Shown here in pieces: positions 11,175 through 54,430 of a stretch of DNA of 64,000 bases. The notes beneath the pieces were generated by a model, which worked only from the letters and a program-made list of their open reading frames with translations, was not told where the DNA came from and searched no databases. Numbering within the stretch: the first letter of the stretch is position 1; each line of letters starts with the position of its first letter. The translations under genes and the position numbers were made by a program. Source of the DNA: an uncultured Alphaproteobacteria bacterium (GTDB taxonomy: Bacteria; Pseudomonadota; Alphaproteobacteria; Rhizobiales; Beijerinckiaceae); the NCBI GenBank assembly GCA_963806935.1, contig CAWEAT010000011.1, forward strand, positions 140,347 through 204,346. Reading direction: 5' to 3'.

Positions 11175-11263
11175 AGTCTTGCGGCTTCCTTGCGAAAAAC
11201 TCGGCCTGATCCCGCATAGCATGGCGCGGGCCGCGCGTAACGCAGACGGCCCGGCACTAGATG

Positions 11264-29613: not shown

Positions 29614-30119
29614 CGAATGAACGCGGCTCTGGTCGCGAGGTCAGTCAGATCAAAAGCCGTTTGCGCCGTAGAGGCGACGGCACAATGTGCAATTACTTCG
29701 GATGAATGCCGCGCTTCGGTCGAACTGACGCGTTCGATTGTCATTTCGGGAACGGCCGCTCCTGTGCAGGTTTTTGGACGCCGGCGGGGCCGATCTCTGC
29801 GGGCGCTCGGACGGCCGGCGTCCAAAAAGCGCCAGGGCACGAAGTCGCGGTCAGCCGGGGCGGCGGCTGGGAGTCGAGCGCTATGGGGATTTCAGGGTGG
29901 CGGCGCATTCGTTGAAGGCGGGACACCGGGGCGACGCGACCCGAATGCCTGCATGTGGCGGCGGGCGAGGGAGAGGAAGAAGCGTTCCGGCAGGGTCTGA
30001 GGGGTATCGACGGGCGCCTGGCGGATGGATTGCCCGGAATCGGGTCGAGAGGGATCGCCGCCGGCGTGGAGCCAGTGCAAGGGAACGGCAAAGCGGCGGC
30101 GCTGACAGGCGGGTCTGGC

Positions 30120-31331: not shown

Positions 31332-31342
31332 GACCGGCGGCG

Positions 31343-32263: not shown

Positions 32264-32769
32264 GGAGAGCTCCATCCTGAGTGAGGTTCGCAACGCCTCG
32301 ATCTCAGGACGGGGCTCTCCGTAGCGCCATCGCTATTCTATCCGCCTGCTACCCAGCCTCCCGGCTCACGCCACCCCGCGCAGCGGGGCCGGAGCGGAGC
32401 GACTTCGTGCTTTGTGCAGGTTTTTGGACGCCGGCGGGGCCGATCTCTGCGGGCGCTCGGACGGCCGGCGTCCAAAAAGCGCCAGGGCACGAAGTCGCGG
32501 TCAGCCGGGGCGGCGGCTGGGAGTCGAGCGCTATGGGGATTTCAGGGTGGCGGCGCATTCGTTGAAGGCGGGACACCGGGGCGACGCGACCCGAATGCCT
32601 GCATGTGGCGGCGGGCGAGGGAGAGGAAGAAGCGTTCCGGCAGGGTCTGAGGGGTATCGACGGGCGCCTGGCGGATGGATTGCCCGGAATCGGGTCGAGA
32701 GGGATCGCCGCCGGCGTGGAGCCAGTGCAAGGGAACGGCAAAGCGGCGGCGCTGACAGGCGGGTCTGGC

Positions 32770-33981: not shown

Positions 33982-33992
33982 GACCGGCGGCG

Positions 33993-34913: not shown

Positions 34914-35199
34914 GGAGAGCTCCATCCTGAGTGAGGTTCGCAACGCCTCGATCTCAGGACGGGGCTCTCCGTAGCGCCATCGCTATTCTATCCGCCTGCT
35001 ACCCAGCCTCCCGGCTCACGCCACCCCGCGCAGCGGGGCCGGAGCGGAGCGACTTCGTGCTTTGGCGCAACGGACGCCTTGAGCCGAAGTCCGCTTTGTT
35101 GCGCATCCCTTCCGTTGCAGGGACGGGCTGGATCGTCTGCAAACGGACGGGCTGGATCGTGTGCAAAGTGTGGAACTTTCGCGTTGGACGCTGGGCCAA

Positions 35200-38013: not shown

Positions 38014-38348
38014 ATGAGCAACAGCTCCTTCGAGAGCTCCGAACCACAACTTCAAGATCTTTTGGGGGAGCCGATTGTTCGCTTGATCATGCAGGCTGAC
38101 AACGTCGACGAGCGTAGGCTGCGTACCCTTATTGAGCAAACCGCGGCGCGCATAAGAAAATGGGGCGATGTCCCGCGCCTGGCAAAGGACTCCCAGGGGG
38201 ACAAGTCGACGCAATCGGATGACGGTTACCGCCTCGGCGTAGGGATCATGCTGCTCAACAGCCGAGGCAATATCTTTGTCGGCCAGCGAATCGACGTGAA
38301 TGAAGAGGCTTGGCAGATGCCGCAGGGCGGCGTTGAGGAAGGGGAAGC
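38014..38348 (+). pseudogene. RppH-like Nudix hydrolase with N-terminal extension, truncated by IS3
   Basis: [20 protein letters not shown]...[13 protein letters not shown] ends inside the Nudix box at the IS3 IR. Confidence 0.75.
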
Positions 38349-39730
38349 TGAACTGGACCCCATTCGTGGGACCGCGGGGGGTTGGATTTAAGGTGTAATC
38401 TCGCCTGCCCTTGTCCTTCAATAATCAAGCCGCTTGTTGCTGCTTCTGCTTTTGCTGTGGGCATGTGGGCAACGCGTTTGCGTTGTCCAAGCGAAGCGGC
38501 ATATCCACAGCCCTCGCCGCCGCCTCGATTTTGTCCATGCCGGCCCGCCACACCGCCATCGGCATCTGGTTGTTCATCGCCTGGTGCGGGCGTCGAAAAT
38601 TGTAAAAACTCATCCAGGAACCGATGCCGGCCCGCGCCTCGCGGCCATCGGCGTAGGCTTTCAGATGCACCTCTTCATACTTGATTGAGCGCCACAGCCG
38701 TTCGATGAAAATGTTGTCCATGAAGCGGCCGCGTCCGTCCATCGAAATTGCGACGCCAGCCGCCGCGAGCCTGCCGGCGAAAGCCTCGGCGGTGAAAGTG
38801 GAGCCCTGATCGGTATTGAAAATCCGTTCCGAACCGAAGCATCGCCTCCTCCAGCGCCGCCGCGCAGAAGCTCGCATCGTTGGTGTTCGACAGCCGCCAT
38901 GCCAGAACCGCCCGGCTTGCCCAGTCGATGATCGCCGCCAGATAGAGGAAGCCGCACGCCATCGGGATAAAGGTCACGTCGGCCGCCCACACGTGGTTCG
39001 GCTCGACAATCTTCAGGCCGCGCAGCAGGTAAGGGTATATCTTGTGCTCGGGCGCGGCTTTGCTCGTGCCAGGGCGTGGAACCAGCGCCTCGATCCCCAT
39101 CACCCGCATCAGCCGCCGCACGCGCTTGCGGTTGACTCCACGGCCTTTCTTGTTGAGTTCGAAGGTCATTCGCCGCGAGCCGTAGAACGGAAGTTCGAGA
39201 TGCAGTTCGTCGATCCGGCGCATCACCGCCAGATCGTCCACGCTGGTGACGGGCTTAGGGCGGTAGACCCCCGAGCGCGCCACGCCCACAAGCGCGCATT
39301 GACGGCGCACCGACAGGTCCTTGCCAGGCCGTTCGACCATCGCTCTTCGATCGGGCGCGCTCATCGCCCTGGCCTCCTGGCCAAGAAATCCCGTTCGACC
39401 GTCAGTTGGCCGATCTTGGCGTAAAGCTTGACCGTCTCGCGCTCGCGCTCCTCCTCGCCATCGCCCGAACCGCTCGCTCCTCGCGCGAACAGGCTCGCGA
39501 CGTTGTCAAGAACCTGCTTCTTCCAGGCATAAATCTGGTTAGGATGCACCCCGTGCCGCTTCGCCAGTTCCGGAACCGTCGCATCCTCGCGCAGCGCCTC
39601 AAGCGCAATCTTCGCCTTGAACGCCGCATCAAACTTCTTGCGTGACTTCGTCATGTCTCGCTCCATCGGTTGCGACAGAGCAGGACATTTCACACCCTAG
39701 CCTATGGTCCTAAATCCGGGGTCCAGCTCA
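38349..39730 (-). mobile_element. IS3-family element, copy 2 (1382 bp), no matching TSD
   Basis: Same IRs and ORFs as copy 1; flanks AGC versus TCG; differs from copy 1 at two positions seen. Confidence 0.92.
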
Positions 39731-39749: not shown

Positions 39750-40130
39750 TCAAGAAACTTGAGCGGCGCGGGAGGGTTTGACGTCGCAGAACGACCTATA
39801 GAGCACGTCGATAACGGCGCGCACCTTATCGTTGGCGATGCTGTAATAGATCGTCTTGCCGTCGCGGCGCGCGGCGACGAGGCCTTCGAGACGCAACCGC
39901 GCCAACTGCTGGGACACCGTCGACTGGCGCAACGATAGGAACTCTTCCAACTTGCCGACGGACTTTTCGCCCTCCAGCAAATTGCACAGAATTAGGAGCC
40001 GCGACTCATGGGCCAGCGCCTTGAGAAACTCGCTAGCTTCGCGGGCGCTCTCGGCCATCTGTTCGATGTCCATTGTGTGTTGCATCGGCTCGAGCGGCTT
40101 CGCGAGGGCCATGGGATGATCACCGTTCAT
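39750..40130 (-). CDS. ArsR/SmtB regulator, SqrR/BigR-like persulfide sensor
   Basis: LKALAHESRLLILCNL...VSQQLARLR.EGLV..RRDGKTIYY...YRSFC; Cys pair matches SqrR/BigR positions. Confidence 0.85.
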   Translation of the reverse strand: MNGDHPMALAKPLEPMQHTMDIEQMAESAREASEFLKALAHESRLLILCNLLEGEKSVGKLEEFLSLRQSTVSQQLARLRLEGLVAARRDGKTIYYSIANDKVRAVIDVLYRSFCDVKPSRAAQVS

Positions 40131-40212
40131 TTTCGTATATGAGAATATCCTACTGTCGATAAATCGGCAATCCTATGGAAGCCCCTGGCGCTCGATGGGG
40201 AAGCCCTCAAAC

Positions 40213-41364
40213 TCATCGGGCGGCAAGCAGCCACAGGAGCGGAACGACGAACATCATTGCCGTCGTGCTCAGCACAACCAACATGTGCCTCGGCCCGACG
40301 CGGAGAAGCGCTCCTAGCGACGTGTTCAAACCAAGGGCTGCGATCGCGATCAGCAGACCCCACCGCGACGCCTCGACCAGGGCGGACTTCACCGGCAGCG
40401 CAATGAGGTCGAGCGAGTTGATGACAACGAAAGCCAGGAACATGATAGCAAAGACGGGGACCGGAACCTTGGCGTTGTGCGAATCGCCGCCTTGCGAGGA
40501 GAACCACCAGCCGACCCCGAGCACCACAGGCAGCAACATGAAGACGCGGAACAACTTGACGATCGTCGCGACGTTTCCTGCGGTGTCGGAAACGGCATAA
40601 CCCGCGCCGACGACCTGAGCGACGTCGTGGATCGACGCGCCAAGGAATATGCCGGTTGTGCGCTGATCGAATCCGAGAGCCATGCAGATCGGCGGGTAGA
40701 CGACCATCGCGACAGTCGCCAGGATATTGACGGTGATGGCGACGAAAACGGTGTCGGATTCGCGGTCCTTATAATGGGGCAGAACGGAAGCTGCCGCCAA
40801 CGCGGCCGAAGCGCCGCAGACGGCCGTCGCGGCCCCCGCCAGGGCGCCATAAAGATCGCCGCGGCCGAACAGACGCGCGAACAGAACGCCGGAGACGAGA
40901 GTGACCGCCATCGCGACCACGACCATGACCGCCGTTCCGACGCCCAGGCCAATGATGTCGGCAAGAGCGATTTTCAGGCCAAACGACGCGATCGCCCAGC
41001 GCAGGATTTTCTTGATGGCGAAGGTCGTGCCGACGGTGAACGCCGGCCGGTCCGCGACCGGATGCAGGACCACGCCGATCAGAAGCGCGATGACCGGCGC
41101 CGTGATCGTGATTTTCCTGCCGACGATCGCTAACGCGAACTTAGTCGTCATCGGCTCGATCTGGACGGCCAGAAGCGCGAGCGCGCCCGCCAAAATCAGC
41201 CCGGGCGCGAGTTTGGCGAGGAAGCCGAAGGAGTCCGCCGCGCTGATCCAACCGACAGACCGGCTCGCCGTGGCTTGCTTTAATCGGATCCCACCGGCAG
41301 GGTCGGGAAGGCTGTCGCGCATCGGCTTCGTTCGTTCTGACGACATTCGAATTTTGACCCCCAA
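40213..41364 (-). CDS. YeiH/UPF0324 putative sulfate exporter family membrane protein
   Basis: ATAVCGASAA, GASIHDVAQVVGAG, ATIVKLFRV, multiple TM helices; start uncertain. Confidence 0.85.
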   Translation of the reverse strand: MGVKIRMSSERTKPMRDSLPDPAGGIRLKQATASRSVGWISAADSFGFLAKLAPGLILAGALALLAVQIEPMTTKFALAIVGRKITITAPVIALLIGVVLHPVADRPAFTVGTTFAIKKILRWAIASFGLKIALADIIGLGVGTAVMVVVAMAVTLVSGVLFARLFGRGDLYGALAGAATAVCGASAALAAASVLPHYKDRESDTVFVAITVNILATVAMVVYPPICMALGFDQRTTGIFLGASIHDVAQVVGAGYAVSDTAGNVATIVKLFRVFMLLPVVLGVGWWFSSQGGDSHNAKVPVPVFAIMFLAFVVINSLDLIALPVKSALVEASRWGLLIAIAALGLNTSLGALLRVGPRHMLVVLSTTAMMFVVPLLWLLAAR

Positions 41365-42035
41365 CGAGGACGCCGACCAAGCCGGGCGACCGCTGCGACG
41401 CTACGGTCCGTTCATATAGTCACATTCGATTATTAGTATTTTTTGCTTGATGCGTCTACCCCTGAGAAAACCAGAGCATTCAAGACGCCGCAGTTCTCGG
41501 CGCCCCCGACTGGCGGCGGATCGTCCCGACGAGCAAATGTCTTACGCGCCACATCGATCGACCTGATCGAAGGCCGTCCGGAGGATTTGCTGACATGGTC
41601 TGATGCCGCATCCCTTGTCAGGTTGGCCGCGCGACAAGTCGGCGCGATGCGGAATCCTCGCCGCTGATCTTCTTTCGATCCCCCGAGCCTGCAACGATCA
41701 GGCACCTTGCGCGGCCGGCCTATGCGGGCGTTCCGCTCACCCATCGCGACCATGCGCTGGCCCGCGTCTTCCCGAAATATGGAATACGCGTCTCACGACC
41801 TCGAGAGAACAGAAGGGTTTTTACGGCCTCTTCCTCCTGGATCCCTCGAAGCCCGGCGGACGGATCGCCAGCCTACGGAAAAGTCGGAGAAGGACGGCTA
41901 CGGTTAGGGCGCGCGCAGAAATTTTCACGCGACATTTCATCACAGGGGCTTGACCAGAGGTTGTAACGATATATTCGACTATGATAATGCAATCAGGAAA
42001 GTCCGCCAACGGTGCGACCGAGGGAGGGTTATGTC

Positions 42036-42536
42036 ATGTCGTCCGTCGAATCCGCCAACGCCAAGACGATGACGATTATCGTCACGAAAGGCTCGCTCGA
42101 CTGGGCGTATCCGCCCTTCATCCTTGCGACAACGGCTGCCGCGATGGGCGTCGACGTCACCATGTTCTTCACCTTTTATGGTTTGCCCCTGCTGCTCAAG
42201 AAGCTCGATCTGCAGGTGACGCCGCTCGGGAATCCGGCGATGAAAATGCCGATGATGGGCATGCACATGGCGATGCCGAACCTCGTCGGCATGTTGCCCG
42301 GAGTGACCGCGGGCGCGACGACAATGATGAAGAATCTCATCGCAAGGAAAGGCGTCGCCTCGATCGAGGATCTGCGCGAAGCCGCCATCGAATCAGACGT
42401 CAAGATGATCGCCTGCCAAATGACGATGGACCTGTTTGAATACAAGCTCGAAGACATGATCGAGGGACCGACCCTCGGCGGCGCCGCAACCTACCTGGAA
42501 AATGCGCTGAAGTCCGACATCAATCTCTTCATTTGA
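42036..42536 (+). CDS. DsrE/DsrF/DrsH-like (DsrE2/3-type) sulfurtransferase
   Basis: TKGSLDWAYPPFILATTAAAMG...FFTFYGL...IACQMTMDLF...GGAATYL. Confidence 0.88.
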   Translation: MSSVESANAKTMTIIVTKGSLDWAYPPFILATTAAAMGVDVTMFFTFYGLPLLLKKLDLQVTPLGNPAMKMPMMGMHMAMPNLVGMLPGVTAGATTMMKNLIARKGVASIEDLREAAIESDVKMIACQMTMDLFEYKLEDMIEGPTLGGAATYLENALKSDINLFI

Positions 42537-42589
42537 TCGCCGCAGGGTCCGTGGAGCCGCGGGACCAAAACATCGGAAGAAAGGATCTC

Positions 42590-42817
42590 ATGGCTGAACA
42601 TCTTCTCGACGCGAAGGGGCTCAACTGCCCGCTGCCGATTCTCAAAGCCAAAAAGGCGCTAAAGGATTTGGCCACCGGCGAAATGCTGCGCATTCTGGCT
42701 ACCGATCCCGGCGCCGCCGCGGATTTCCAGGCTTTTTGCCGCACGACCGGCAACGAGCTGGTGGAGTCGAAGCAGGACGGCGGCGCCTATAGTTTTCTTA
42801 TCAAGCGACTGGCGTAA
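42590..42817 (+). CDS. tusA: TusA-family sulfur carrier
   Basis: LDAKGLNCPLPILK, ATDPG..ADF.AFC. Confidence 0.92.
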   Translation: MAEHLLDAKGLNCPLPILKAKKALKDLATGEMLRILATDPGAAADFQAFCRTTGNELVESKQDGGAYSFLIKRLA

Positions 42818-42897
42818 AGCGTCGAACGAGAAGCGAGGGCGACGATCGGCTCTACCCATCGCTTGGGTTTGCGCCGGCATTACCAGGAGAAACAAAA

Positions 42898-43677
42898 TTG
42901 AAAACGACGGAAATCGGGCGACGTTCGGCTCTTTTGTCGATGGGGCTGGGCCTGGCGGCCGGCGCATCGAGTTTCGTCACCGAAGCGAGCGCTGGCGAGA
43001 CGATGACGCTGCCCAGCAGCGCCGACACGCTCGCGGAGCTTGCCGCGCGCCTCGCCAAAGCGCCGCGACGACGCGACTTCAAGACCGTGCCGATGATCCT
43101 CACCTCTCCCGACGCGTGGGACCATGAGGCGATCGGCGAGGTGCTCGCCTATCGCGGCGCACCGAAGCAGGTGTTTGACAACGTCGACATTGCGGGCCCC
43201 TGGCTCAATCTGATGCGCAATTCGTCGAACGCTCAGGTGTGGGCGTTCCAGCATCCGAATTTCCTCTGCGTTTCCGCGACCCACGCAACCGCGCATCTCG
43301 CCCTGCTCGATCAGGCGATGTGGGACAAGTATCAGCTCGTGAAGCTCGCGAAAATCGACCGCAACACGTTTATCGTGGAGCAGAAAGCGGCCGAAGCGGA
43401 CGCCAGCGACTTCCAAAATCCGGATGGCGTGTTCTCCGGACACAACAATTCCATTCCCGCGCTGCAACGGCGCGGCGTCGTCTTCATGGGTTGCCATAAC
43501 TCGATCTGGGAAGTGACCGAGAAGCTGATGGGCGCGCACGTCAATCCCGACAAGCTGTCGCACGAAGCGATGGCGGCCGAGCTTACCAATCATCTTATCC
43601 CCGGGGTCGTGCTGACTCCGGGAATGGTCGGAACGTTGCCCGAGTTGGCGACGGCCGGCTTCTCCTTCGCGAAATAA
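42898..43677 (+). CDS. Tat-exported DsrE-like protein of unknown function
   Basis: GRRSALL twin-arginine signal; GVVFMGCHNS Cys motif resembling the DsrE fold. Confidence 0.65.
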   Translation: MKTTEIGRRSALLSMGLGLAAGASSFVTEASAGETMTLPSSADTLAELAARLAKAPRRRDFKTVPMILTSPDAWDHEAIGEVLAYRGAPKQVFDNVDIAGPWLNLMRNSSNAQVWAFQHPNFLCVSATHATAHLALLDQAMWDKYQLVKLAKIDRNTFIVEQKAAEADASDFQNPDGVFSGHNNSIPALQRRGVVFMGCHNSIWEVTEKLMGAHVNPDKLSHEAMAAELTNHLIPGVVLTPGMVGTLPELATAGFSFAK

Positions 43678-43687
43678 GAGCGACGCG

Positions 43688-44683
43688 ATGCTAGGTGCTT
43701 GCGGGCGGGCGGTATTCGCCGCGCTGTTGGGACTTTCCGTCGGCGTCGCCGGGTCGGCGCACGCTGGGACCGCGCCCACGCCAGTGGAAAGGCCCGACCT
43801 CTATCCGCCATGGCGACACGGCGAAAATAGCGACGTCGCCGACAAGGGTCTTGAGTTTACCGAGCCGGAGATCGACGATCTGGCCGATTTCCATGGCGAT
43901 CCGATGGATCCCAGGCTCTCGCTCTTCGTCGGCGGCAATTACTTCTTCGCCATGGCGCCGCTGGTGCGCAAGTTCGAGGAACTGCATCCAGAATTCAAAG
44001 GCAGGATTTACTGGGAAACGATCCCGCCAGGCTTGCTTGTCAAGCAGATTCAGTCCGGCGGCACAATCACTTCAGGCAACATGACCTGGACGGTGAAGGC
44101 CGACGCCTATTTCGCCGGCTTCAACAAGGTCAAACAACTGGTGTCCGACGGACTGCTGATCGGTCCACCCACGCCTTACGTCACGAATACGCTGACGATC
44201 ATGATCCCGAAGGCCAATCCGGCGCATGTCACGGGGCTTGCCGATCTCGGGAAGCCGGACGTCAAGCTTGTCATGCCCAATCCGGCCTACGAGGGCATCG
44301 CACGTCAGATCAAGGCGGCGCTGACCAAGGCCGGCGGCGAGTCGCTCGCGAAAGCCGTCTACGACGACAAGGTCGCGAACGGGACGGCGATACTCACCCA
44401 TATCCACCACCGCCAGACGCCGCTCTATCTCATGCTGGGCCGCGCCGACGCGGGCGTCACATGGCAATCCGAAGCGGTCTTTCAGGAAGAGGCGGGTCAC
44501 CCGATCTCGCACGTCGACATCCCGGACGCGCAAAACAACACAGCGATCTATGCGGGCGCCGTTCTCGCCAGCGCCCCGCATCCCGACGCGGCCAAGCTGT
44601 GGCTCGATTTCATCCGCTCGGCAGACGGCCTGAAGATTTTCGAGCACTACGGGTTCAAGCCGTATCAGGGGAATGGCGGCTAA
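43688..44683 (+). CDS. ModA-like periplasmic oxyanion-binding protein
   Basis: Signal peptide, NTLTIMIPKANP..VTGLADL..PDV..MPNP, GRADAGVTWQSEA, IFEHYGF. Confidence 0.8.
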   Translation: MLGACGRAVFAALLGLSVGVAGSAHAGTAPTPVERPDLYPPWRHGENSDVADKGLEFTEPEIDDLADFHGDPMDPRLSLFVGGNYFFAMAPLVRKFEELHPEFKGRIYWETIPPGLLVKQIQSGGTITSGNMTWTVKADAYFAGFNKVKQLVSDGLLIGPPTPYVTNTLTIMIPKANPAHVTGLADLGKPDVKLVMPNPAYEGIARQIKAALTKAGGESLAKAVYDDKVANGTAILTHIHHRQTPLYLMLGRADAGVTWQSEAVFQEEAGHPISHVDIPDAQNNTAIYAGAVLASAPHPDAAKLWLDFIRSADGLKIFEHYGFKPYQGNGG

Positions 44684-44739
44684 TCAAGGACCGTAGCCCT
44701 CCTTCGCGTTGAAGGAGCGCTCATACGAGGGAGCGAACG

Positions 44740-45309
44740 ATGTCGTCGATGGCTGAGCCGATCGTCCGAAGGTCCGCGGCGGCGCGGCGGATCGACTTCT
44801 CGCCCTATCTCGTTGGCGTCGGGCTCGGCGTTCTCAGCTGGATCGCCTTCGCCGTCGCGAAGGACCCGCTCGGCGTCACCACGGCGATGTCGCGCGTCGC
44901 GCAGCCAATCGCGGCGATTTTTATTGCGCCGGAAGCGGCGGCGAAAAACGCCTATTGGGCGCCGATGCCCTTCTCTTGGGATTATGGCGTCCTGTTCCTG
45001 GTCGGCGCCCTTGGCGGCGCCCTCTTCGGCTCATTGATGGCGGGGACGTCCCGCATCGAACTCGTGCCGCGGTTCTGGCGCGAACGCTTCGGCGGCTCGG
45101 TCCCGAAGCGCTTCGCGGCCGCATTCCTCGCCGGCGCCGCGATCATGTATGGCGCAAGGCTCGCAGGCGGCTGCAGCAGCGGTCACGGCCTTTCAGGCGG
45201 GATGCAGCTGGCGCTCTCGAGCTGGGTGTTCCTCCTCGTGATGGTTGCGAGCGCGCTGGCTGCCTCGGCGCTGGTGTTTGGACGTGGACCGACAGGAGCG
45301 CGCCGATAA
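44740..45309 (+). CDS. YeeE/YedE sulfur-compound transporter subunit 1
   Basis: PLGVTT, FLVGALGGA, YGARLAGGCSSGHGLSG. Confidence 0.85.
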   Translation: MSSMAEPIVRRSAAARRIDFSPYLVGVGLGVLSWIAFAVAKDPLGVTTAMSRVAQPIAAIFIAPEAAAKNAYWAPMPFSWDYGVLFLVGALGGALFGSLMAGTSRIELVPRFWRERFGGSVPKRFAAAFLAGAAIMYGARLAGGCSSGHGLSGGMQLALSSWVFLLVMVASALAASALVFGRGPTGARR

Positions 45310-45848
45310 TTGCGGGCAGCGCCGCCACGGGATTTGCATTCGGATGGCTCTTGCAACGCGCCAGACTGACGGACTGCAACGTCGTAGAAGGCCAGTTTCG
45401 CCTTACTGACTTCACCATGATCAAGGTGATGCTGTCTGCGATCATCATCGGCGGGCTCGGCGTCCTTGCATTGATCGATTTAGGCGACGCAAAATACTAC
45501 ATCAAGGACGCCAACCTGCTTGCGGTGGCGCTCGGCGCCGCCCTGTTCGGATTCGCCCTGGTATTCTGGGGTTATTGCCCCGGCACGGGCCTGGCGTCCG
45601 TGGCGACGGGCAGCGTGCACGGACTCGTCGGCGTGATCGGCATGGCGTTCGGCGCGATCCTCTACGCGCTCACCTACGATTGGGTCAAAGCGCGCATCCT
45701 CCCGGTCGCGGCCTATGGGAAGGTCCGAATCCCGGACATCACCGGCATCCCCGATATCGTTTGGTTTCTGGCCCTCGCAGTCGCGTCGGTCGCATTGTTC
45801 TACTGGGTTGAAAGGCCAGAATCCGAACGGTTTTCACGGGACACGTAA
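45306..45848 (+). CDS. YeeE/YedE sulfur-compound transporter subunit 2 (start codon unclear)
   Basis: GFAFGWLLQRA, LFGFALVFWGYCPGTGLAS; ATA/ATT where an overlapping ATG would be expected. Confidence 0.8.
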   Translation: MIAGSAATGFAFGWLLQRARLTDCNVVEGQFRLTDFTMIKVMLSAIIIGGLGVLALIDLGDAKYYIKDANLLAVALGAALFGFALVFWGYCPGTGLASVATGSVHGLVGVIGMAFGAILYALTYDWVKARILPVAAYGKVRIPDITGIPDIVWFLALAVASVALFYWVERPESERFSRDT

Positions 45849-45882
45849 CAGAGCGGTCAAAGAACCGGGCGAAGGGGGACCC

Positions 45883-47916
45883 ATGAAGCGGCTCGTTGTC
45901 GGCGGCATGGCGGTTGTTGTGGGTCTCGGAGCCGCGCTTTGGGTCCTGACGCCGCCGTCTGCGCCGACGTCGATGCTAGCGCCTCCAGCGCTTGATGATG
46001 CGACCGTCGCGCGCGGGGCCTATCTCGCGCGGCTCGGCGATTGCGGCGCCTGCCACACCAGCGAAGGCGGCAAGGAGATGGCCGGCGGCCTCGCATTTGA
46101 CACCCCGATCGGCCGCATCTATTCGACCAACATCACGCCCGATCCGAAGTCTGGCATAGGCGGATACACGCTCGCCCAATTTGAGGGGGCCCTCCGGCGC
46201 GGCGTCAACGCCAATGGCGCAAATGTGTATCCCGCGATGCCCTACCTGTCATTCGCCAAGATTAACGACGACGACGTTAAGGCGCTCTACGCGTACTTCA
46301 TGAAGGGGGTGGAGCCGGTCGAGCAGGCGAACAAGCCCAACGAAATGAGGTTCCCCTTCAACATCCGACTCGGGCTTGGACTCTGGAGGACCGCCTTTCT
46401 GAACAATCGTCGATTCGCTGAAGATTCGTCCAAGGACGAGCAGTGGAATCGTGGCGCTTACATCGTCGAGGGGCTCGGCCATTGCGGCGCTTGCCACACG
46501 CCGCGCGGCATGGGCATGCAGGAGACGGCAACGAGCGAGGATGGCAAGTCCTACCTCTCGGGTTCGACCATCGCGCCGTGGCGCGCAGTCAGTCTTCGCA
46601 ATTTGTGGAGCGAAAAGGAGGTTGTCCAATTCTTGAAAACCGGCGCCAATGCTCATGCCGCCGCCTACGGAAACATGACTGAAGTCGTGCACGACAGTAC
46701 GCAGTATTATACCGACGCCGACCTCGCCGCGGTCGCACACTTTCTGAAATCTCTCTCGACCGACGAAGCCGCGCCGACCATCGCGGCAGAAGCGATTCCG
46801 GAAACCCTCTTTACGACTCGTGGAGGGCTCGGCTACGACCAGTTTTGTTCCTCGTGCCATCAGCGGGACGGGCGCGGCGCGCCCGGCGTCTTCCCGCCGC
46901 TCGCGGGCAATGATTCCGTACTGTCCGACGATCCGATCTCCGTCATTCATGTCGTGCTGACCGGCTGGACGGAGGCGGCGACGCAGTTTTCGAAGCACGC
47001 ATTCGCTATGCCCGAATACAGTTCGCTTAGCGACGCGGAGCTTGCGGAAATCCTGACCTTCGTGCGCACGAGTTGGGGCAACAAAGGCGAGGCGGTCACC
47101 GCCGCGCAGATCAAGGAGCAGCGCGACGCGCTTGCCCCCGTGTCGACCGCGCCAGCGAAATTCTCGGCGGCGCGCTTCGCCGAGATGCTCGCGGCGCCGA
47201 ACGCCGATCAACTCATCCTCGGCATGCGCCTCATGACGGAAACGAAGACCCTCCTGCCCGATCATGTCGGCAACGAGATGAGCTGCGCCAGCTGCCATCT
47301 GGACGGCGGCACCGTCGCTATGGGCTCGCCCTTCAACGGCGTCGCGGCTCTGTTTCCGATGAACAACCCTCGGGCAGGACGGGTCATTTCTCTCGAGGAG
47401 CGGCTCAACGGCTGCTTCTTGCGCTCGATGAACGGGACACGGCTTGCCGACGATTCCAAGGACATGAAGGCCATGATTGCGTTCGTGGCGTGGATGAAGG
47501 GCGATGCGGCCGCGAACGGCAAGATCCCGGGGCGCGGGATCGGCGCGGTGAACGCCGGGCTCATCCCCGATCCGGTTCGCGGCAAAGCGCTGTTCGAGAC
47601 GAACTGCGCCGTCTGCCACGGATCTGATGGGCAAGGCATGAAATCCAGCGACGGCGGCTGGCTCTTCCCGCCGCTTTGGGGCAACGCCTCATTCAACATC
47701 GGCGCTGGAATCGCGCGGACGTTCACCGCCGCGTCCTTTGTCAAGGCGAACATGCCGATCGCGCACACGACCAAATATCCGCAGGGTCAGGGCGGCCTCT
47801 CCGATCAGGACGTTGTCGACATCGCTGAGTACTTCACCCATCAACCGCGACCGGATTTCCCCGCCAAGGTCAGCGACTGGCCGAAAGGGGGAAAGCCTAA
47901 GGATGCAAGATATTGA
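45883..47916 (+). CDS. Five-heme c-type cytochrome: membrane-anchored triheme domain fused to a TsdA-like thiosulfate dehydrogenase
   Basis: CxxCH x5 (CGACH, CGACH, CSSCH, CASCH, CAVCH); TsdA signatures [27 protein letters not shown]. Confidence 0.85.
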
Positions 47917-47924
47917 CGATCGAC

Positions 47925-48015
47925 GCCCTCCGCAGTGCTGCGATGTTGCCGCATAGGCCGTGCGACCGCCCTTGAACACGGCCGAGCCGGCGACCAGAGC
48001 CTCGGCCCCGTTGGC
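47925..48015 (-). pseudogene. C-terminal fragment of ribulose-phosphate 3-epimerase (cbbE/rpe)
   Basis: [20 protein letters not shown](ANIAALR with one indel). Confidence 0.65.
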
Positions 48016-48204
48016 GATCATATAGGCGATTGCCTTGTCGGCGGCTTCACCTTCCATTTTGCCGAAGCCCATCGTGCCGACCTGGATGCCCGAGGTGCCC
48101 TGCAGTCGCGCCATCTTGGCGAGGACAAACCCGGTGTAGCCGCGCTTCGACCGCGGCGAGGTCACGGCTCCGTGGCCGGCGTGGTGATAGTGCAGATACT
48201 GCTT
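48016..48204 (-). pseudogene. cbbM: Internal fragment of form II RuBisCO (cbbM)
   Basis: [59 protein letters not shown] matches the form II segment as recalled ([53 protein letters not shown]). Confidence 0.85.
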
Positions 48205-48209
48205 AAGGC

Positions 48210-48992
48210 TCAGAGGCCCCGCGCAGACACGTAGACGCCGACGGCCACGACCGCCGAGCCGAACACAATTCGCAACGCGCCTCTCCGCTTCGCAAGAGCC
48301 CCGGCAAGTCTCACTCCGACCGCACCGCCTGCGAGGCCGCCCGCGATAAACAGCGCCGCGATCCGCCAGTCGACCAGACCGGAGACGGCGTAGCTGGCGG
48401 CAGTCGTCGCGCCGAAGGCGGCGACCGAAACGAGCGAGGTGCCGATCGCCGCGACCATCGGCATGCCGGTCGCCGCGATCAGGCCCGGCACGATCAGGAA
48501 TCCGCCGCCAATACCGAAGAATCCGGCGAGGAGCCCCACCCCGAACCCCATCGCGATCAACGGAGGGAGGAGACGTCCCGCTGTCGCCGAGGTAAGCTCG
48601 ACGTCGGCATGCTTGATCTTGCGCGGCCCTATCAGCATGACCGCTCCGACGACGATCATGAGCAGCCCGAACAAGAGCAGCAGACGTTGGCCGTCGACCA
48701 TTTTGGCGACGCTGGAACCGAAGAATGCGCCGAGGACCCCGGCTGTGGAGAAGACGCCCGCGCACGGCCATTTGACATTGCCCGAGCGCGCATGAGCCAG
48801 AAGATTGGCGATCGCGCTGATGCTGACCGCGATGGCGCTGGTCCCGATCGCGACATGAGGCGAAGGAACCCCGACGCCGTATACCAGCAACGGAACTGCA
48901 AGAACCGATCCGCCGCCGCCGACGAGGCCGAGAACCCCGCCGACGAGGCCTCCGACGGCCACCGTTGTAAAATCCGAGATCGACAACACCAT
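48210..48992 (-). CDS. TauE/SafE sulfite exporter family protein
   Basis: Repeated GxxxGxxGxGGG motifs ([14 protein letters not shown]; [14 protein letters not shown]), AIGTS. Confidence 0.88.
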
Positions 48993-49155
48993 CGATCCTC
49001 GCAAGGTCACAACTGGAGCTTGCAAATCAGAATCGCCCGAACCCGGTTCCGGCGCTCTCGCACTGAAAGCCCTCGAGGTGTTGCGACACCGTCTTGATGT
49101 CTTTGACCTTGCTGCGGCACGTGCGAACAATAGACCAAGGAGGACAAGTGCTCGA

Positions 49156-50445
49156 TCACGTGGTCTCGAATTCGACGGCCTTGAGCTTCTCGATCCCGAG
49201 CAGGTTGAGAGCCAGAGACTCGTAGAAAGGCTCGCTTTCGCCCTTGCGCATCTTGCGCAGGAAGTATTTCTCGAAGCCGATCTTGGCAGCGTGAACCCAC
49301 TTCCCCGAAGAGGACCAGTTGACGTTGCGCGGCGGAATCTGGGGCTGGGCGACGAAGGCGATACCCGAATCGCCGAAGTCGGCGAGGCACACCGCGTTCC
49401 AGGTGCCCTGGAACCTGGGCTTGGCGCCCCGCAGGATCTGCCCGAGGTTTCGAGCGGTCGCCGTCACCATCAATTCGATCATGAAGCCAGTCTTTGGCAC
49501 GCCGCAAGGCACCGGGGTGGGGCCGACCGGCGGGATCGCGACGCAGACGCCGACAGAAAAGACGTTCCGGAATGTTGGGTTCTGCTGGTGCTCGTCGACG
49601 ATAACGAAACCCCGCGGATTGACAAGTCCCTCCACGCCGCGCAGCGGCGCGATGCCGCGGAACGCGGGCAGGATCATCGAGAAGCCGAAGGGCAGTTCGC
49701 GGGTTGCCTTGACGGTGCCGTCATCGCCGACCTCCTCGACCGTCATCTTGCCCTGCTCGACTTTCTTGATGCGGGCGCTCGTGATCCACTTGATGTGATG
49801 ATCGCGCATCTCGCTTTCGAGCAGGCCTTTCGTATCTCCGACCCCGTCGAGGCCGAGGTGGCCGATGTAGGGTTCGGCGGTGACAAAGGTCATCGGGACC
49901 TTGTCGCGGATTTTGCGGCGGCGCAGTTCGGTCTCGAGAATGAACATGAACTCGTAAGCAGGTCCAAAGCAGGACGCGCCCTGCGCGGCGCCGATCACGA
50001 CCGGACCGGGGTCCTTGCAGAACGCCTCGAAATTGTCCGCCGCCTTCTCGGCATGGTCGATGTGGCAGATCGAGTTCGTGAAGCCGTCGGGGCCGAGCCC
50101 TTCGACTTCATCGAACGCCAGTTCGGGCCCTGTCGCGATGATCAGGTAATCGTACCGGATCGACGAACCGTCCGCCGTCTCGACCGTGTTCTCCTTTGGC
50201 GACGCTTTCGCCACCGCGCTCGGCTTGAAGCCAATTCCGCGCTTGGCGAATGTCCGCGCGAGATCAACCTGAATCAACTCGCGCGTTCTCCATCCGACTG
50301 GAACCCACGGATTGGACGGAACGAAATGATAAAGCGGATCCTTGGTGACGACAGTCAGCCTGTCCTCAGGGCGCATCTGATCCTTCATCTCGTAGGCCAT
50401 GATCGCGCCGCTGAGCCCGGCGCCCATGATCACGATGTCAGCCAT
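49156..50445 (-). CDS. sqr: Sulfide:quinone oxidoreductase, type I (SqrA-like)
   Basis: GAGLSG FAD site, FVPSNPWV, SICH, ASCFGPAYE, VPKTGFMIE, AVCLADFG; close to R. capsulatus SQR as recalled. Confidence 0.93.
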   Translation of the reverse strand: MADIVIMGAGLSGAIMAYEMKDQMRPEDRLTVVTKDPLYHFVPSNPWVPVGWRTRELIQVDLARTFAKRGIGFKPSAVAKASPKENTVETADGSSIRYDYLIIATGPELAFDEVEGLGPDGFTNSICHIDHAEKAADNFEAFCKDPGPVVIGAAQGASCFGPAYEFMFILETELRRRKIRDKVPMTFVTAEPYIGHLGLDGVGDTKGLLESEMRDHHIKWITSARIKKVEQGKMTVEEVGDDGTVKATRELPFGFSMILPAFRGIAPLRGVEGLVNPRGFVIVDEHQQNPTFRNVFSVGVCVAIPPVGPTPVPCGVPKTGFMIELMVTATARNLGQILRGAKPRFQGTWNAVCLADFGDSGIAFVAQPQIPPRNVNWSSSGKWVHAAKIGFEKYFLRKMRKGESEPFYESLALNLLGIEKLKAVEFETT

Positions 50446-50543
50446 CTGTTTCTCTCCCCATACGGAACCGTTCAGTGGCCCAGCTGATTTTCGCCGAAAC
50501 CCTCGTTATTCTATAATATCTGAATTCGTCAATATTTAATGCT

Positions 50544-51620
50544 GGCGCTTATAGCGATACCTGTTGATATATGAAGGCTGAAGAGTTCGTCGTTTTCGGG
50601 CGTTGGGCGGCTGAGCGTCGAGCAACGCCGGGAAGTGGCGGCCGCTTTGGCGAATCTGGATGGCGGGCTCAGACGGGCGGGAGAAACGGAGGCCTCCGCG
50701 GCCGGCGGGGCGAGGTACAACGGCGCGCAGCGGGGTCGTCGTGCGGATGCTTTGGGGACGAGCGGCCATGAGCGCGTGGCGAGCCAAGGCTGTCCCCATT
50801 GCGCAGGACGAGCGATCGTCGCCTGGGGACGCTCGCATGGGCTTTCGCGGTTCCGCTGCAAGAGCTGCGGGCGCACCTTCAATGCGCTCACCAAGACGGC
50901 GATGGCGCATCTGCACAAAAGGGAGCGTTGGTTCGACCACGCTCGGGCGATGATCGAGGGCAAAAGCCTGGCCAGGACGGCCGAGCTTTGCGGAGTGCAT
51001 CCGACGACGGCGTTTCGCTGGCGGCATCGGTTTCTGAGCGCTCCGGGCGCCGACAAGCCCAGAAAACTGAGCGGAATCGTCGAGGTGGACGAAACCTTCA
51101 TCCTTGAATCCTTCAAGGGCCGGTGGTCTGATCTGCCGCGCAAGGCTTAGCAAACGGGGCGGGCCGGCCAGGCATCCGGGCCTCCATTCGGACAACATTC
51201 CCGTTCTCGTCGCCCGCGACCGGCGGGGCGCGACCTTCGACGCAGTCCTGCCGCACGACGACAGCGCCTCGATCGGAGCGGCGCTGGCCGGCGTCGTGAC
51301 GGGCGAAAATATCTCATCGGCGACGGCGGGAAGGCGATCGCCGCCTTCGCCCGCAAAGCCAACATCCCCTTTCACGCCGTGCCTGCGCCGGGCAAGCCGA
51401 CCGCCGAGGCGCCTCACCTCCACATCAACAACGTCAACGCCTATCACGGCCGCCTCAAGCAGTGGCTCAATCGCTTCAACGGCGTCGCCACCAAGAACCT
51501 GCCCAACTATCTTGGCTGGCGCCGCGCTCTCGAAGCCTGGGGCGATCAAGCCACGCCCCAGACCTGGATCAAGGGCGCAATCGGAAACGGCCCATATCAA
51601 CAGGTACCGCTATAAGCGCC
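50544..51620 (+). mobile_element. IS1595-family element, transposase decayed
   Basis: 27-bp IRs GGCGCTTATAGCG(A/G)TACCTGTTGATAT; TSD TTAATGCT/TTAATGCC; Zn ribbon CPHC...RFRCKSC, VEVDET, HINNVNAYH; several frameshifts. Confidence 0.9.
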
Positions 51621-51769
51621 TTAATGCCGATCTGCAACAAATTGTCCATTGCAAGGGGTCTTCGCCTGTTGATTTCCACTGAGAGGTGACCCGGGCGCCA
51701 CGGGTTTTTCCACCGAGAACTGACCCATGTTCGAACCCTTCCCCCTTGGCCTAGGCGGGGGACGATGGA

Positions 51770-53311
51770 GTGATCGACATGGAGTTACTGAGCGTCATCC
51801 GACGCTGGCACTGCCGGGACCATTTCTCGATCCGAGAGATATCGCGGCGCACGGGGCTGTCGAGGAACACAGTCCGCAAATATCTGCGCTCGGACACCGT
51901 TGAACCGAGGTTCAACATCCCTGACCGCCCGAGCAAGCTGGACCCTTACGCCGACAAGCTGTCGCATATGCTGCGGCAGGAGGCGGGGAAGTCCCGCAAG
52001 CAGAAGCGGACGACCAAGCAATTGCACGCCGATCTGGCCGCCCTCGGTTACGACGGCTCCTACAATCGCGTGGCGGCCTTCGCTCGCGACTGGAAGGCCG
52101 CTCGGCAACAGGAACAGAAGACGTGCGGCCGCGGCGTGTTCGTGCCGCTGGCGTTTTTGCCGGGCGAGGCGTTCCAGTTCGACTGGTCGGAAGATTGGGC
52201 GATCATTGCCGGCGAGCGAACCAAGCTGCAGGTCGCTCACTTCAAACTGTCCTGCAGCCGCGCCTTCTTCCTCCGGGCCTACCCGCAGCAGACCCACGAG
52301 ATGCTGTTCGACGCCCATAACCACGCCTTCCGCGTGCTGGGCGGCGTTCCCCGGCGAGGCATCTACGACAACATGCGCACTGCGGTCGACAAAGTCGGGC
52401 GCGGCAAGAACCGCCAGGTCAACGCACGGTTCGCAGCCATGGTCAGCCACTTCCTGTTCGAGGCGGAGTTCTGCAATCCGGCGTCCGGTTGGGAGAAGGG
52501 GCAGATCGAGAAGAACGTCCAGGACGCCCGCCATCGGCTCTGGCAGCCCATGCCCAGCTTCCCCTCCCTGGCGGCGCTGAACGACTGGCTGGAGATGCGA
52601 TGCAGGGAGCTGTGGGAGCAGACGCCGCACGCCTCGCATCCTGGCGCGATTGCCGACGCCTGGGCCGAAGAGGTCCAGCATCTGATGCAGCCTTCGCGCC
52701 CGTTCGACGGCTTCGTCGAATACGCCAAGCGCGTGTCGCCGACGTGCCTGGTCCATCTGGACCGCAATCGCTATAGCGTGCCGGCCTCCTTCGCCAATCG
52801 TCCAGTCAGCGTACGAGTTTATCCCGAACGCATCGTTGTCGCCGCCGAGGGACAAGTCGTCTGCGAACATCGCCGCGTTTTTGCCCGCTCCCACCAACGC
52901 AAGAGCACGACCACCGTTTTCGACTGGCGGCACTATCTGGCGGTCATTCAGCGCAAACCGGGCGCACTCCGCAACGGCGCGCCGTTCGCCGAACTCCCGC
53001 CTGCCTTCCGTGCCTTGCAACAGCGCATGCTCAAGACGCCGGGCGGCGACCGCGAGATGGTCGAGATTCTGGCTCTCGTCCTCCAGCATGACGAGCAGGC
53101 CGTGCTCACTGCCGTCGAACTGGCTCTGGAGGCCGGCGTGCCGACCAAGACGCACATTCTGAACCTGCTGCACCGATTGATCGACGGCAAGCCGATCGAC
53201 CCACCAGCCGTGAAGCCGCCTAATGCTTTGACCCTCACCACCGAACCGCAGGCCAACGTCGAACGCTACGATGCGCTGCGCAAGGCTCGAGAGGCGCGCC
53301 ATGCGTCATAA
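51770..53311 (+). CDS. istA: IS21 transposase IstA
   Basis: [22 protein letters not shown]. Confidence 0.92.
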
Positions 53312-54095
53312 TCCCGCCGCCGGCGCCGTCGTCATCATGCTGCGAACCCTCAAGATGCACGGTATGGCTCAGGCGGTCGGCGAGCTGACCGAGCAAGGCT
53401 CCCCGGCCTTCGAAGCCGCAGTGCCGATCCTGTCGCAGCTTCTGAAAGCGGAGACGGCCGATAGGGAGGTGAGATCGACGGCCTATCAGCTCAAGGCCGC
53501 CCGCTTTCCGAACTATCGCGACCTTGCCGGCTTCGACTTCGCCAGCAGCGAGGTCAACGAGGCGCTCACACGTCAACTCCATCGTTGCGAGTTCCTGGAA
53601 GACGCCCACAATGTCGTCCTGGTCGGCGGCCCCGGCACGGGCAAGACGCATCTCGCCACCGCGATCGGCGTCCAGGCGATCGAGCATCATCGCAAGCGCG
53701 TCCGCTTCTTCTCCACCGTCGAACTCGTCAACGCTCTCGAACAAGAGAAGCTTCAGGGCAAGCCAGGACAGATCGCCGCCCGGCTCACTCACTCCGATCT
53801 CGTCATCCTCGACGAGCTTGGCTACCTGCCGTTCAGCGCCTCCGGCGGGGCGTTGCTCTTCCATCTGCTGAGCAAGCTCTACGAGCGTGCCAGCGTCATC
53901 ATCACAACCAATCTCAGCTTCGGCGAGTGGGCAACCGTGTTCGGCGACCCGAAGATGACGACCGCTCTACTCGATCGTCTCACCCACCGCTGCCACATTC
54001 TCGAAACCGGAAACGACAGCTTCCGCTTCAAGAACAGCTCGGCGAAAGCCGCCAAACCCGCAAAGGAGAAACCTCGAAACTTGACGAACGCCTGA
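53301..54095 (+). CDS. istB: IS21 helper ATPase IstB
   Basis: [30 protein letters not shown]. Confidence 0.92.
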
Positions 54096-54169
54096 TCCCA
54101 AAACCATCATCAAGCCGGGTCAGTTCTCAATGGAAATCCCGGGTCAGTTCTCGACGGAAATCGACATTC

Positions 54170-54430
54170 GCCTTCAGCGTGCCGGCGAAGTCGATTTCTG
54201 TCAGCACTGTGCGTGCGCCTTGCTGAACGCGCTGCGCGAGCGCATGCCGGAGTAGCAGATCAGCACCACCCGTTTTTCGGAAGGCATGCGCTGCGGGTTG
54301 AGGGCGGCATGTTGAGCGACCTCGGCATATGCGCCGAGGCGAACTCGTGCGCCTCGCGCACGTCGACCACGCACTTGCCGGCCTCGACGGCCTGCTCGAA
54401 TTCCTCATGTTCGATTGTCCGCGGATCGGG
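54170..54430 (-). pseudogene. Rhodanese-like sulfurtransferase remnant
   Basis: IEHEEFEQAVEAGKCVVDVREAHEFASAHMP.SLNMP, then after a frameshift EKRVVLICYSGMRSRSA active-site loop; abuts IS21. Confidence 0.75.

Follow-up and report, generated by a model that had tools for sequence, protein, structure and literature searches.

Sulfur oxidisers without Sox abound in peat, mine waters and acid soils, and how such bacteria link thiosulfate to the respiratory chain and bring sulfur into the cell is the question raised by a gene block at positions 39750-54430 of contig stretch CAWEAT010000011.1:140,347-204,346. This stretch of 64,000 nucleotides, hereafter the window, comes from an uncultured alphaproteobacterium of the Beijerinckiaceae (assembly GCA_963806935.1). 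The original prediction, made from the letters alone, had presented the block as a self-contained module for sulfide and thiosulfate oxidation and as a candidate for an undescribed system. On comparison with known systems, the block is a variant of the tsd-sbp-doxDA operon of Acidithiobacillus ferrooxidans combined with a SqrR-SQR pair (SQR, sulfide:quinone oxidoreductase), a tusA-dsrE2 relay and PmpAB, TauE and YeiH transporters, all of described families that figure in sulfur-oxidation models of the literature. Three things are new: a five-haem TsdA fusion in the DoxDA slot, the partnering of Tsd with three types of enzyme, and the recurrence of the set in a few acid-soil Alphaproteobacteria. 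The preferred reading, given a probability of roughly 55%, sees in the block a sulfur-oxidation island of three transcription units that was acquired horizontally and works by the mechanism proposed below.

All components of the original prediction were found in the block by open reading frame (ORF) calling guided by the GC content of third codon positions, together with family searches (Table 1). The SqrR-type repressor, type I SQR, DsrE2, TusA, rhodanese remnant, YeeE pair, TauE, YeiH, oxyanion-binding protein and five-haem TsdA fusion each matched protein families or structures in the Protein Data Bank (PDB). The genes form three units, namely yeiH and sqrR on the minus strand, a plus-strand series running from dsrE2 to the five-haem cytochrome gene (cyt5), and sqr with tauE, convergent to the cytochrome operon. 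The plus-strand genes follow one another in the order dsrE2, tusA, tsd, sbp, pmpA, pmpB and cyt5 with gaps of 10-80 bp or overlaps, an operon-like arrangement. The start of yeiH was provisionally placed at the first in-frame ATG and that of tusA at an internal ATG.

The point that the earlier work had overlooked is the identity of the Tat-exported protein, Tsd (Tat, twin-arginine translocation). It matched the 'thiosulfate dehydrogenase' family NF052225 over its full length (259/259 aa), carries the twin-arginine motif GRRSALL and had no Pfam match. NF052225 was taken to be the family of A. ferrooxidans AFE_0042 on the basis of size (~25 kDa), Tat signal and gene order, and not of a comparison with the AFE_0042 sequence. 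The Tsd of A. ferrooxidans is reportedly the protein of Kikumoto et al. 2013. In that bacterium, AFE_0041-0046 is a sulfur-induced 'thiosulfate-quinone oxidoreductase operon' whose products, besides Tsd and DoxDA, include a rhodanese-like protein, a transporter and a periplasmic binding protein (PMC2754497, PMC6335251). The window has the same succession of a Tat-exported Tsd of ~25 kDa, a ModA-like binding protein and a membrane-linked thiosulfate-oxidising enzyme, with a rhodanese and an anion transporter nearby. Unlike the A. ferrooxidans operon, it is led by dsrE2-tusA, has SqrR and SQR attached and fills the DoxDA slot with the two genes of a split YeeE and one for a five-haem AdhB-TsdA fusion; no DoxD or DoxA domain was found among the block gene products in Pfam scans. 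The hosts also differ, the one being a neutral-to-acid soil alphaproteobacterium and the other an extreme acidophile.

This likeness bears directly on the claim that the block is an undescribed kind of system. The claim could not be upheld, as tsd-sbp partly matches a characterised operon, and the remaining parts (sqrR-sqr, tusA-dsrE2, pmpAB, tauE) are known modules rather than an unrecognised combination outside any described pathway. AFE_0042 yields tetrathionate and reduces neither ubiquinone nor cytochrome c, so the A. ferrooxidans Tsd needs a partner; tetrathionate-forming Tsd activity is known only for this protein (PMC6335251).

Table 1. Features of the sulfur block and its surroundings, in window positions.
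Feature	Position	Strand	Evidence or remark
IS3-family element, second of two copies	38345..39700	-	abuts sqrR stop codon
sqrR, SqrR/BigR-type persulfide-sensing ArsR repressor	39750..40130	-	Pfam HTH_5
yeiH, PSE-family putative sulfate/anion exporter	40213..41346 (frame to 41364)	-	PF03601, E 2e-61
Divergent promoter region between yeiH-sqrR and dsrE2 operon	41347..42035		all frames without a Pfam domain
dsrE2, sulfur carrier protein DsrE2	42036..42536 (frame from 42012)	+	NF047629, 213.8 bits (cut-off 210); PF13686, E 4e-50
tusA, TusA/YeeD-type sulfurtransferase	42590..42817 (frame from 42533)	+	CPLP motif; PF01206, E 4e-23
tsd, Tat-exported 'thiosulfate dehydrogenase' family protein	42898..43677	+	NF052225, 385 bits (cut-off 300)
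sbp, periplasmic ModA/CysP-like oxyanion-binding protein	43688..44683	+	PF13531 (SBP_bac_11), E 3e-49
pmpA-like, C-terminal-half type of split YeeE/TsuA transporter	44740..45309	+	PF04143, profile positions 172-308
pmpB-like, N-terminal-half type of split YeeE/TsuA transporter	45276..45848 (start approximate)	+	TsuA positions 8-122; YedE family matches
cyt5, five-haem cytochrome, AdhB-type trihaem plus TsdA dihaem domain	45883..47916	+	five CxxCH motifs, 677 aa
Form II RuBisCO (cbbM) fossil with Rpe-like tail	47902..48228	-	PF00016, E 4.4e-20, stop-to-stop translation
tauE, TauE/SafE-family anion (sulfite-type) exporter, 3' of sqr	48210..48992 (frame to 49130)	-	PF01925, E 2e-48
sqr, type I sulfide:quinone oxidoreductase	49156..50445	-	3SZ0 and 3HYV matches
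Palindromic SqrR-box-like site ATTCTATAATATCTGAAT	50508..50525		63 bp upstream of sqr; ATTC-N10-GAAT
Recent insertion: transposase fragment (50635-51615) and IS21 (istA 51770-53311, istB 53271-54095)	50543..54166	+	Pfam matches; absent in L173
Single-domain rhodanese pseudogene, frameshifted	54190..54430	-	PF00581, E 4.7e-4 at 54293-54409

The cytochrome is built of two parts. Residues 37-437 matched the trihaem cytochrome subunit of alcohol dehydrogenase (8GY2_B, E 7e-104) and residues 441-665 matched TsdA (4WQC, E 4e-50). Three CxxCH motifs are present in the N-terminal part, which resembles 8GY2_B over its full length and also matched AdhB, GDH and FDH cytochrome subunits, from alcohol, glucose and fructose dehydrogenases that reduce quinone. 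In the C-terminal part, alignment to 4WQC and 4V2K revealed two CxxCH motifs, the Cys axial-ligand motif at haem 1 and a Met (NMP) at haem 2; the last 240 residues correspond to a full TsdA as in Allochromatium vinosum (4WQ7) and Marichromatium purpuratum (5LO9). The protein is not a TsdBA fusion, for which an N-terminal dihaem TsdB would be expected: 5LO9 matched the TsdA part only, and the electron-accepting part is of the trihaem type through which membrane dehydrogenases are linked to ubiquinone. It is this module that brings electrons to ubiquinone in acetic acid bacteria. With cyt5 occupying the slot that DoxDA holds in sister operons, the fusion may perform the job of DoxDA. A literature search for the five-haem fusion found no experimental study or description of it.

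To judge the set as a whole, the neighbourhoods of its genes were compared across genomes and metagenome contigs. In Rhodoblastus acidophilus (L004) the order is yeiH-tsd-sbp-pmpA-pmpB-cyt5-sqr-dsrE2-tusA, directly adjoining dsrABEFHC. The alphaproteobacterial metagenome-assembled genome (MAG) L009 has the same order together with sqrR at 60% identity, and MAG L001/L006, likewise alphaproteobacterial, has dsrE2-x-dsrE2-tusA-DUF4395-tsd-sbp-pmpAB-cyt5 adjoining a hydrogenase and dsrC. The DsrE2 proteins of L001, L004 and L009 are 81-86% identical to that of the window. The divergent arrangement of the window, sqrR-yeiH facing dsrE2-tusA-tsd-sbp, was found again in metagenome contig L094, whereas Gallionella acididurans and one betaproteobacterial MAG have tsd-sbp-cyt5 only. 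These observations support the view that the gene set is recurring and no chance neighbourhood, so that the cluster counts as conserved. With dsrABEFHC adjoining it in Rhodoblastus acidophilus, the set looks there like an accessory of the rDsr system and not like the self-contained module of the original description.

The partners of Tsd were counted separately. Of 80 metagenome tsd loci, 43 had enough context to be judged, and in 37 of these tsd stands beside a gene for a tetrathionate-forming enzyme (DoxDA in 22, TsdA/TsdB in 14, the five-haem fusion in 1), leaving six with none. Named genomes gave the same picture, with tsd-sbp-doxDA in a genome of the host's own genus (G012), tsd-sbp-doxDA-tauE in Methylovirgula, and tsd-sbp-tsdB-tsdA in Noviherbaspirillum pedocola, there next to an arsR-pmpA-pmpB-tauE unit and a metallo-beta-lactamase gene. 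On these counts and genomes, Tsd is regularly found next to three thiosulfate enzymes that form tetrathionate and are unrelated to one another. Yet another type of neighbour, the fourth, was seen on MAG contig L092 (10001-12662), where tsd is followed by a Metallophos/5'-nucleotidase-type (SoxB-like) gene and not by sbp or a thiosulfate dehydrogenase gene.

The history of the block was read mainly from L173, a contig of a close strain that is 98% identical to the window. Its layout is tsd-sbp-pmpAB-cyt5, tauE-sqr, rhodanese remnant, a carboxymuconolactone-decarboxylase-family (CMD) gene and groESL, with neither the IS21 nor the ISAs1 copy of the window (IS, insertion sequence), and sqr continues directly into the rhodanese remnant and groESL. 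The segments 50543-54166 and 58731-59925, being missing from L173, are recent insertions. At the latter, an ISAs1 copy, 11 bp of the L173 empty site match both flanks, which suggests that the insertion made a target duplication. Conversely, the window lacks ~615 bp with the CMD gene at ~54437, a deletion relative to L173. The original prediction had called the block IS-bounded. On the left this holds, as the IS3 copy, a 99-100% direct repeat of the sequence from 35742 onward with HTH_Tnp_1, HTH_21, rve and rve_3 domains in ORFs at 38425-39693, reaches the end of sqrR. On the right it does not: the L173 layout indicates that the native block extends to groESL, so IS21 is an insertion inside the block and no natural border. 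Further to the left, window positions 29763-35064 hold two identical copies, in tandem, of a 2650-bp unit that encodes an IS91-type Y2 transposase (Pfam Y2_Tnp) and a tyrosine recombinase (Pfam Phage_integrase).

Two fossils lie within the block. Between the cytochrome gene and tauE, in L173 as in the window, ~65 residues of form II RuBisCO are followed by an Rpe-like C-terminus; this cbbM/rpe fragment is a collapsed cbb operon and non-functional filler between both operons. The rhodanese remnant is split over two frames (...VVDVREAHEFASAHMPRSLNMP and ...VVLICYSGMRSRSAF), of which the second contains the active-site loop CYSGMRS, and in L173 it was called only as a 66-aa remnant. A placement of this remnant in the 650-bp spacer between yeiH and dsrE2 was considered and rejected, there being no Pfam match in any frame of the spacer; the real site, 54293-54409, lies beyond IS21. 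In L173 the called tauE product has 260 aa.

The distribution within the host genus was also patchy. Among 36 other species of the genus, tsd was present in one, as tsd-sbp-doxDA, and the five-haem gene in one, where it is broken into several frames; from this rarity it is concluded that the island was acquired horizontally. The broken copy, on L174 (G011:C6) at ~9380-11325 of the minus strand, is 65-74% identical and spread over three or four frames, and none of the other island genes was found near it.

Such a record invites the reading that the block is a mosaic without functional unity, the decaying remnant of what was once a bigger phototrophic or lithotrophic sulfur cluster (like that of Rhodoblastus, with dsr adjoining the set) and was moved and shuffled by insertion sequences, in which only SqrR-SQR detoxification and perhaps a stand-alone TsdA matter and the rest are passengers. 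The cbbM/rpe fossil between the operons, the frameshifted rhodanese, the IS3, IS21, IS91 and ISAs1 copies around, the gene order shuffled relative to Rhodoblastus acidophilus, the scarcity of tsd and of an intact five-haem gene in the genus and the lack of dsr, sHdr and sox in the host genome would all suit it. This reading is nevertheless considered unlikely. All ten core genes have intact frames and are 98% conserved in the second strain, and the set is shared, with protein identities of 60-86%, by no fewer than three further lineages, a recurrence that argues for selection on the whole set.

The window SQR matched the A. ferrooxidans (3SZ0, E 1.5e-139) and Aquifex aeolicus (3HYV, E 1.6e-101) enzymes, and all three catalytic Cys align, in SICH, ASCFGP and AVCLAD. 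Both reference enzymes are presumably type I in the classification of Marcia et al. 2010. Type I SQR is a periplasm-facing monotopic enzyme from which polysulfide is released (PMC9371685). The closest PDB relative of the window repressor was SqrR of Rhodobacter capsulatus (6O8L, E 2.8e-32), and both sensing Cys of that protein (C41 and C107) align to Cys in the LLILCNL and YRSFCD segments of the window protein. The NCBIfam BigR equivalog scored 97.7 bits, under its cut-off of 155, and the window repressor is therefore regarded as nearer SqrR than BigR. YeiH, encoded upstream of sqrR in the same direction of transcription, has eleven hydrophobic segments.

Binding sites for the repressor were sought by pattern. 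The published SqrR box is ATTC-x8-GAAT (bioRxiv 10.1101/2020.03.22.001966); the palindrome upstream of sqr (Table 1) has its half-sites 10 bases apart rather than 8, and the same ATTC-N10-GAAT pattern stands upstream of sqr in Rhodoblastus acidophilus (L004). In the divergent promoter, two imperfect SqrR-box-like sites at 41424-41439 (ATTCGATTATTAGTAT) and 41973-41988 (ATTCGACTATGATAAT), the second overlapping a predicted -10 element, are candidate SqrR operators. Phylogenetic footprinting of this promoter against contig L094 gave nothing, as no alignment of the non-coding DNA was obtained.

A two-Cys ArsR repressor with sqr behind an ATTC...GAAT palindrome is shared with the SqrR regulon of Rhodobacter capsulatus and the BigR and PigS operons, and sets under such control also contain PmpAB-type and TauE-type transporters as found here (PMC9774590, PMC11582611). 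The BigR and PigS operons combine arsR with pmpAB/YeeE, tauE and a persulfide dioxygenase (PDO)-rhodanese gene. A persulfide dioxygenase gene, in contrast, is absent from the window block. In the Noviherbaspirillum locus, a BigR-like unit is combined with tsd-sbp-tsdBA.

The transport and carrier genes form the remainder of the plus-strand unit. The adjacent pmpA-like and pmpB-like genes are half-size and correspond, in this order, to the C-terminal and the N-terminal half of YeeE; both products have about four helices and a conserved Cys (in GGCSSGHG, in a protein with four hydrophobic segments, and in GYCPGTG, respectively). PmpAB is a split YeeE (PMC11582611), and the TusA-type protein YeeD is an essential partner of YeeE (PMC11073785); TusA and DsrE2 are for this reason the likely cytoplasmic acceptors. 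The block resembles YeeE-YeeD (TsuA-TsuB) in encoding a YeeE-family membrane protein together with a TusA-family protein with a CPxP Cys, and differs in the splitting of YeeE into two half-size genes, the extra binding protein and DsrE2, and the dissimilatory context. The binding protein has an N-terminal signal segment, gave weak ModA and CysP matches and has no ABC partner. Adjacent dsrE2 and tusA genes are also a feature of the rhd-tusA-dsrE2 relay that feeds rDsr in A. vinosum and in the Methylovirgula thiovorans model, in which a PmpAB pair is the proposed sulfur importer and TauE the proposed sulfite exporter (PMC9371685). Unlike those systems, the window has a rhodanese that is a pseudogene and not adjacent, and its host lacks DsrAB, DsrEFH and DsrC.

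These same genes could be taken as mainly assimilatory, with the binding protein, PmpAB, TusA and DsrE2 scavenging thiosulfate for cysteine and the redox enzymes as mere neighbours. YeeE/YeeD of E. coli serves assimilatory thiosulfate uptake (PMC11073785); the CysP and ModA matches, weak as they are, point the same way, and so does the failure to find a dissimilatory sink for imported sulfur in the host genome. Yet the block has neither an ABC transporter nor cys genes, the regulator is of the SqrR type and not CysB, and the linkage across genomes is to SQR, TsdA, DoxDA and dsr. An assimilatory role as the main one is accordingly held to be very improbable.

Whether the rest of the genome supplies what the block lacks was examined in the 4.9-Mb host assembly, which is 93% complete, so that the absence of Sox, sHdr and rDsr is likely and not certain. 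The original prediction that sox, shdr, dsr and pdo are missing from the window was confirmed, since none of the matches that the SoxB, SoxZ, CCG and metallo-beta-lactamase models and the Rhodoblastus Dsr queries gave across the genome lay inside it. The genome as a whole likewise returned no SoxB (best match 36 bits against a cut-off of 550), no sHdr and, by tblastn with the Rhodoblastus Dsr proteins, no DsrAB, DsrEFH or DsrC. The only SoxZ match was rejected as Sox, being part of a SoxYZ-like fusion beside a SoxH-like hydrolase, and two pairs of CCG-domain matches were rejected as sHdrB and identified as LutA and GlcF. The former locus (contig C16:119300-121104) consists of a gene for a SoxH-like metallo-beta-lactamase followed by one for a Tat-exported SoxYZ-like fusion; this arrangement has been assigned to catabolism of alcohols dependent on pyrroloquinoline quinone (PQQ), not to Sox (PMC11582611).

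A PDO-like gene was present on contig C33 at ~94947-95978 (4YSB, E 5e-49), with an apparent frameshift near FQNGD and a single-domain rhodanese gene after it; possibly it is a pseudogene, or else the assembly is at fault. A second sqrR-sqr pair was found next to an RND efflux system (contig C18:46494-48473); it shares 48% and 58% identity with the copies in the window, and a simple pattern search found no SqrR-box-like site there. The genome also has three sulfite-oxidase-family genes. No TetH candidate emerged from a check that was not exhaustive, the PQQ_2 matches being dehydrogenase-size ORFs of ~600 aa and one BamB-like protein.

The comparisons establish which genes are present, that the set is conserved and what stands next to Tsd; the path of electrons to quinone, the part played by Tsd and the binding protein, the substrates of the transporters and the regulation are inferred. 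From these parts, the following mechanism is proposed. In the sqr-tauE unit, SQR would turn sulfide into polysulfide and reduce quinone. The dsrE2-tusA-tsd-sbp-pmpA-pmpB-cyt5 unit is the one that varies the tsd-sbp-doxDA operon of A. ferrooxidans. Here the TsdA domain of the five-haem cytochrome would convert thiosulfate into tetrathionate at its Cys-ligated haem, and electrons would pass via the AdhB-like trihaem domain toward ubiquinone, a task of DoxDA elsewhere. Tsd, a periplasmic protein with a predicted DsrE fold and one invariant Cys, may capture or activate thiosulfate or tetrathionate together with the binding protein, while PmpAB, with the YeeD-like TusA and DsrE2, would bring thiosulfate or sulfane sulfur into the cytoplasm. 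In the yeiH-sqrR unit, SqrR would keep the set repressed until persulfide is present, and YeiH and TauE may export the resulting oxyanions. The coupling of sulfide and thiosulfate oxidation to the quinone pool, with sulfur traffic across the membrane, that had originally been envisaged thus fits the homologies. The net result in this host is probably a supplementary gain of electrons and detoxification, sulfide being converted to polysulfide and thiosulfate to tetrathionate, and not full oxidation to sulfate.

Several observations weigh against this mechanism. The island is decayed and rearranged, as the cbbM fossil, the rhodanese pseudogene and the IS insertions attest, and with Dsr and sHdr absent and pdo frameshifted, there is no evident sink downstream for the sulfur imported. 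The pattern ATTC-N7-11-GAAT was found four times across the window against 5.3 expected, with no enrichment over chance, so SqrR regulation is suggested by the position of the sites and by no more than that. The five-haem fusion, of which at least 120 full-length homologues were among the matches listed out of thousands scored, occurred in 80 species genomes, including Pseudomonas, Janthinobacterium, Xanthobacter, Rhodopseudomonas, Rhodoferax and Gallionella, and in 71 of the 80 it had no tsd or sbp nearby; it is to that extent independent of tsd/sbp. Beyond one N-terminal hydrophobic segment no membrane anchor was found in the cytochrome, and the Asn-Met coordination of haem 2 (NMP) equals that of the K208N variant of A. 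vinosum TsdA. The TsdA of C. jejuni, which favours tetrathionate reduction, has the same Asn-Met pair. The thiosulfate/tetrathionate couple, at +198 mV (PMC9562282), lies above ubiquinone, and electron transfer to quinone would be uphill under standard conditions. Given the potential of the couple and the haem 2 ligands, the reaction may run in either direction.

The cytochrome might accordingly run in reverse, as a quinol:tetrathionate reductase of anaerobic respiration, with Tsd and the binding protein handling tetrathionate and PmpAB importing the thiosulfate made. Transfer from quinol to tetrathionate is downhill, haem 2 has Asn-Met rather than Lys-Met ligands, and TsdA enzymes are bidirectional (PMC6879331, PMC5146829). 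What makes this direction improbable is the company that the genes keep: Tsd stands beside DoxDA, a known thiosulfate-oxidising enzyme, in 22 of the 43 loci, the A. ferrooxidans operon is induced in aerobic sulfur oxidation, and the cluster is linked to SQR and, in Rhodoblastus, to oxidative dsr.

The role of Tsd itself was approached through structure, as the original prediction had called the protein DsrE-like. By sequence, no relation to DsrE was detected in Pfam searches at E up to 5, in hhalign comparisons with DsrE and DsrE2 or in a PDB profile search. A first AlphaFold (AF2) model, built on 20 close sequences, was discarded because of a predicted local distance difference test (pLDDT) score of 60 and meaningless Foldseek matches. 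The alignment was then widened by nine more distant full-length family representatives and the tsd products of loci L089 and L090, and the resulting model reached a pLDDT of 83.9 and a predicted template-modelling (TM) score of 0.79. In a Foldseek search of the PDB with this model, the DsrE-like structures 2PD2, 1L1S, 3MC3 and 3PNX were four of the top five matches, with probabilities of 0.85-1.0 and target TM scores of 0.50-0.72 at E-values of only 2e-3 to 0.13, which are marginal. Cys199, in an FxxCHN motif, is invariant in 31 sequences and ends strand 195-199 immediately before a helix. The core of Tsd is thus predicted to be DsrE-like with its Cys at the strand-helix junction; the earlier description is backed by the second model, within its marginal E-values, and by neither the sequence methods nor the first model.

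This prediction opens a further, speculative possibility, thought rather unlikely at present. Tsd may be no stand-alone dehydrogenase and act instead as a periplasmic DsrE-fold Cys carrier that, with the binding protein, serves DoxDA, TsdBA and the five-haem fusion alike. It would take up the thiosulfonate or sulfane group and pass it to PmpAB-TusA-DsrE2, and the five-haem protein would be a haem-only thiosulfate:quinone oxidoreductase. A comparable relay is known from Metallosphaera, where tetrathionate-derived thiosulfonate is carried by DsrE3A and TusA (PMC4175335). If this is true, the Tsd carrier and the five-haem oxidoreductase would constitute a route that leads, without Sox, from thiosulfate in the periplasm to protein-bound sulfur in the cytoplasm.

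The locus reveals no new kind of pathway. Its interest lies in tsd-sbp, a pair known only from Acidithiobacillus, which travels with three different thiosulfate-oxidising enzymes and whose companion in some Alpha- and Betaproteobacteria is a five-haem TsdA fusion, itself unstudied, that may take the place of DoxDA. In cultivable hosts such as Rhodoblastus acidophilus, the locus thereby offers candidate proteins for the electron acceptor that Tsd is missing and for a link between thiosulfate and quinone that is based on haem.

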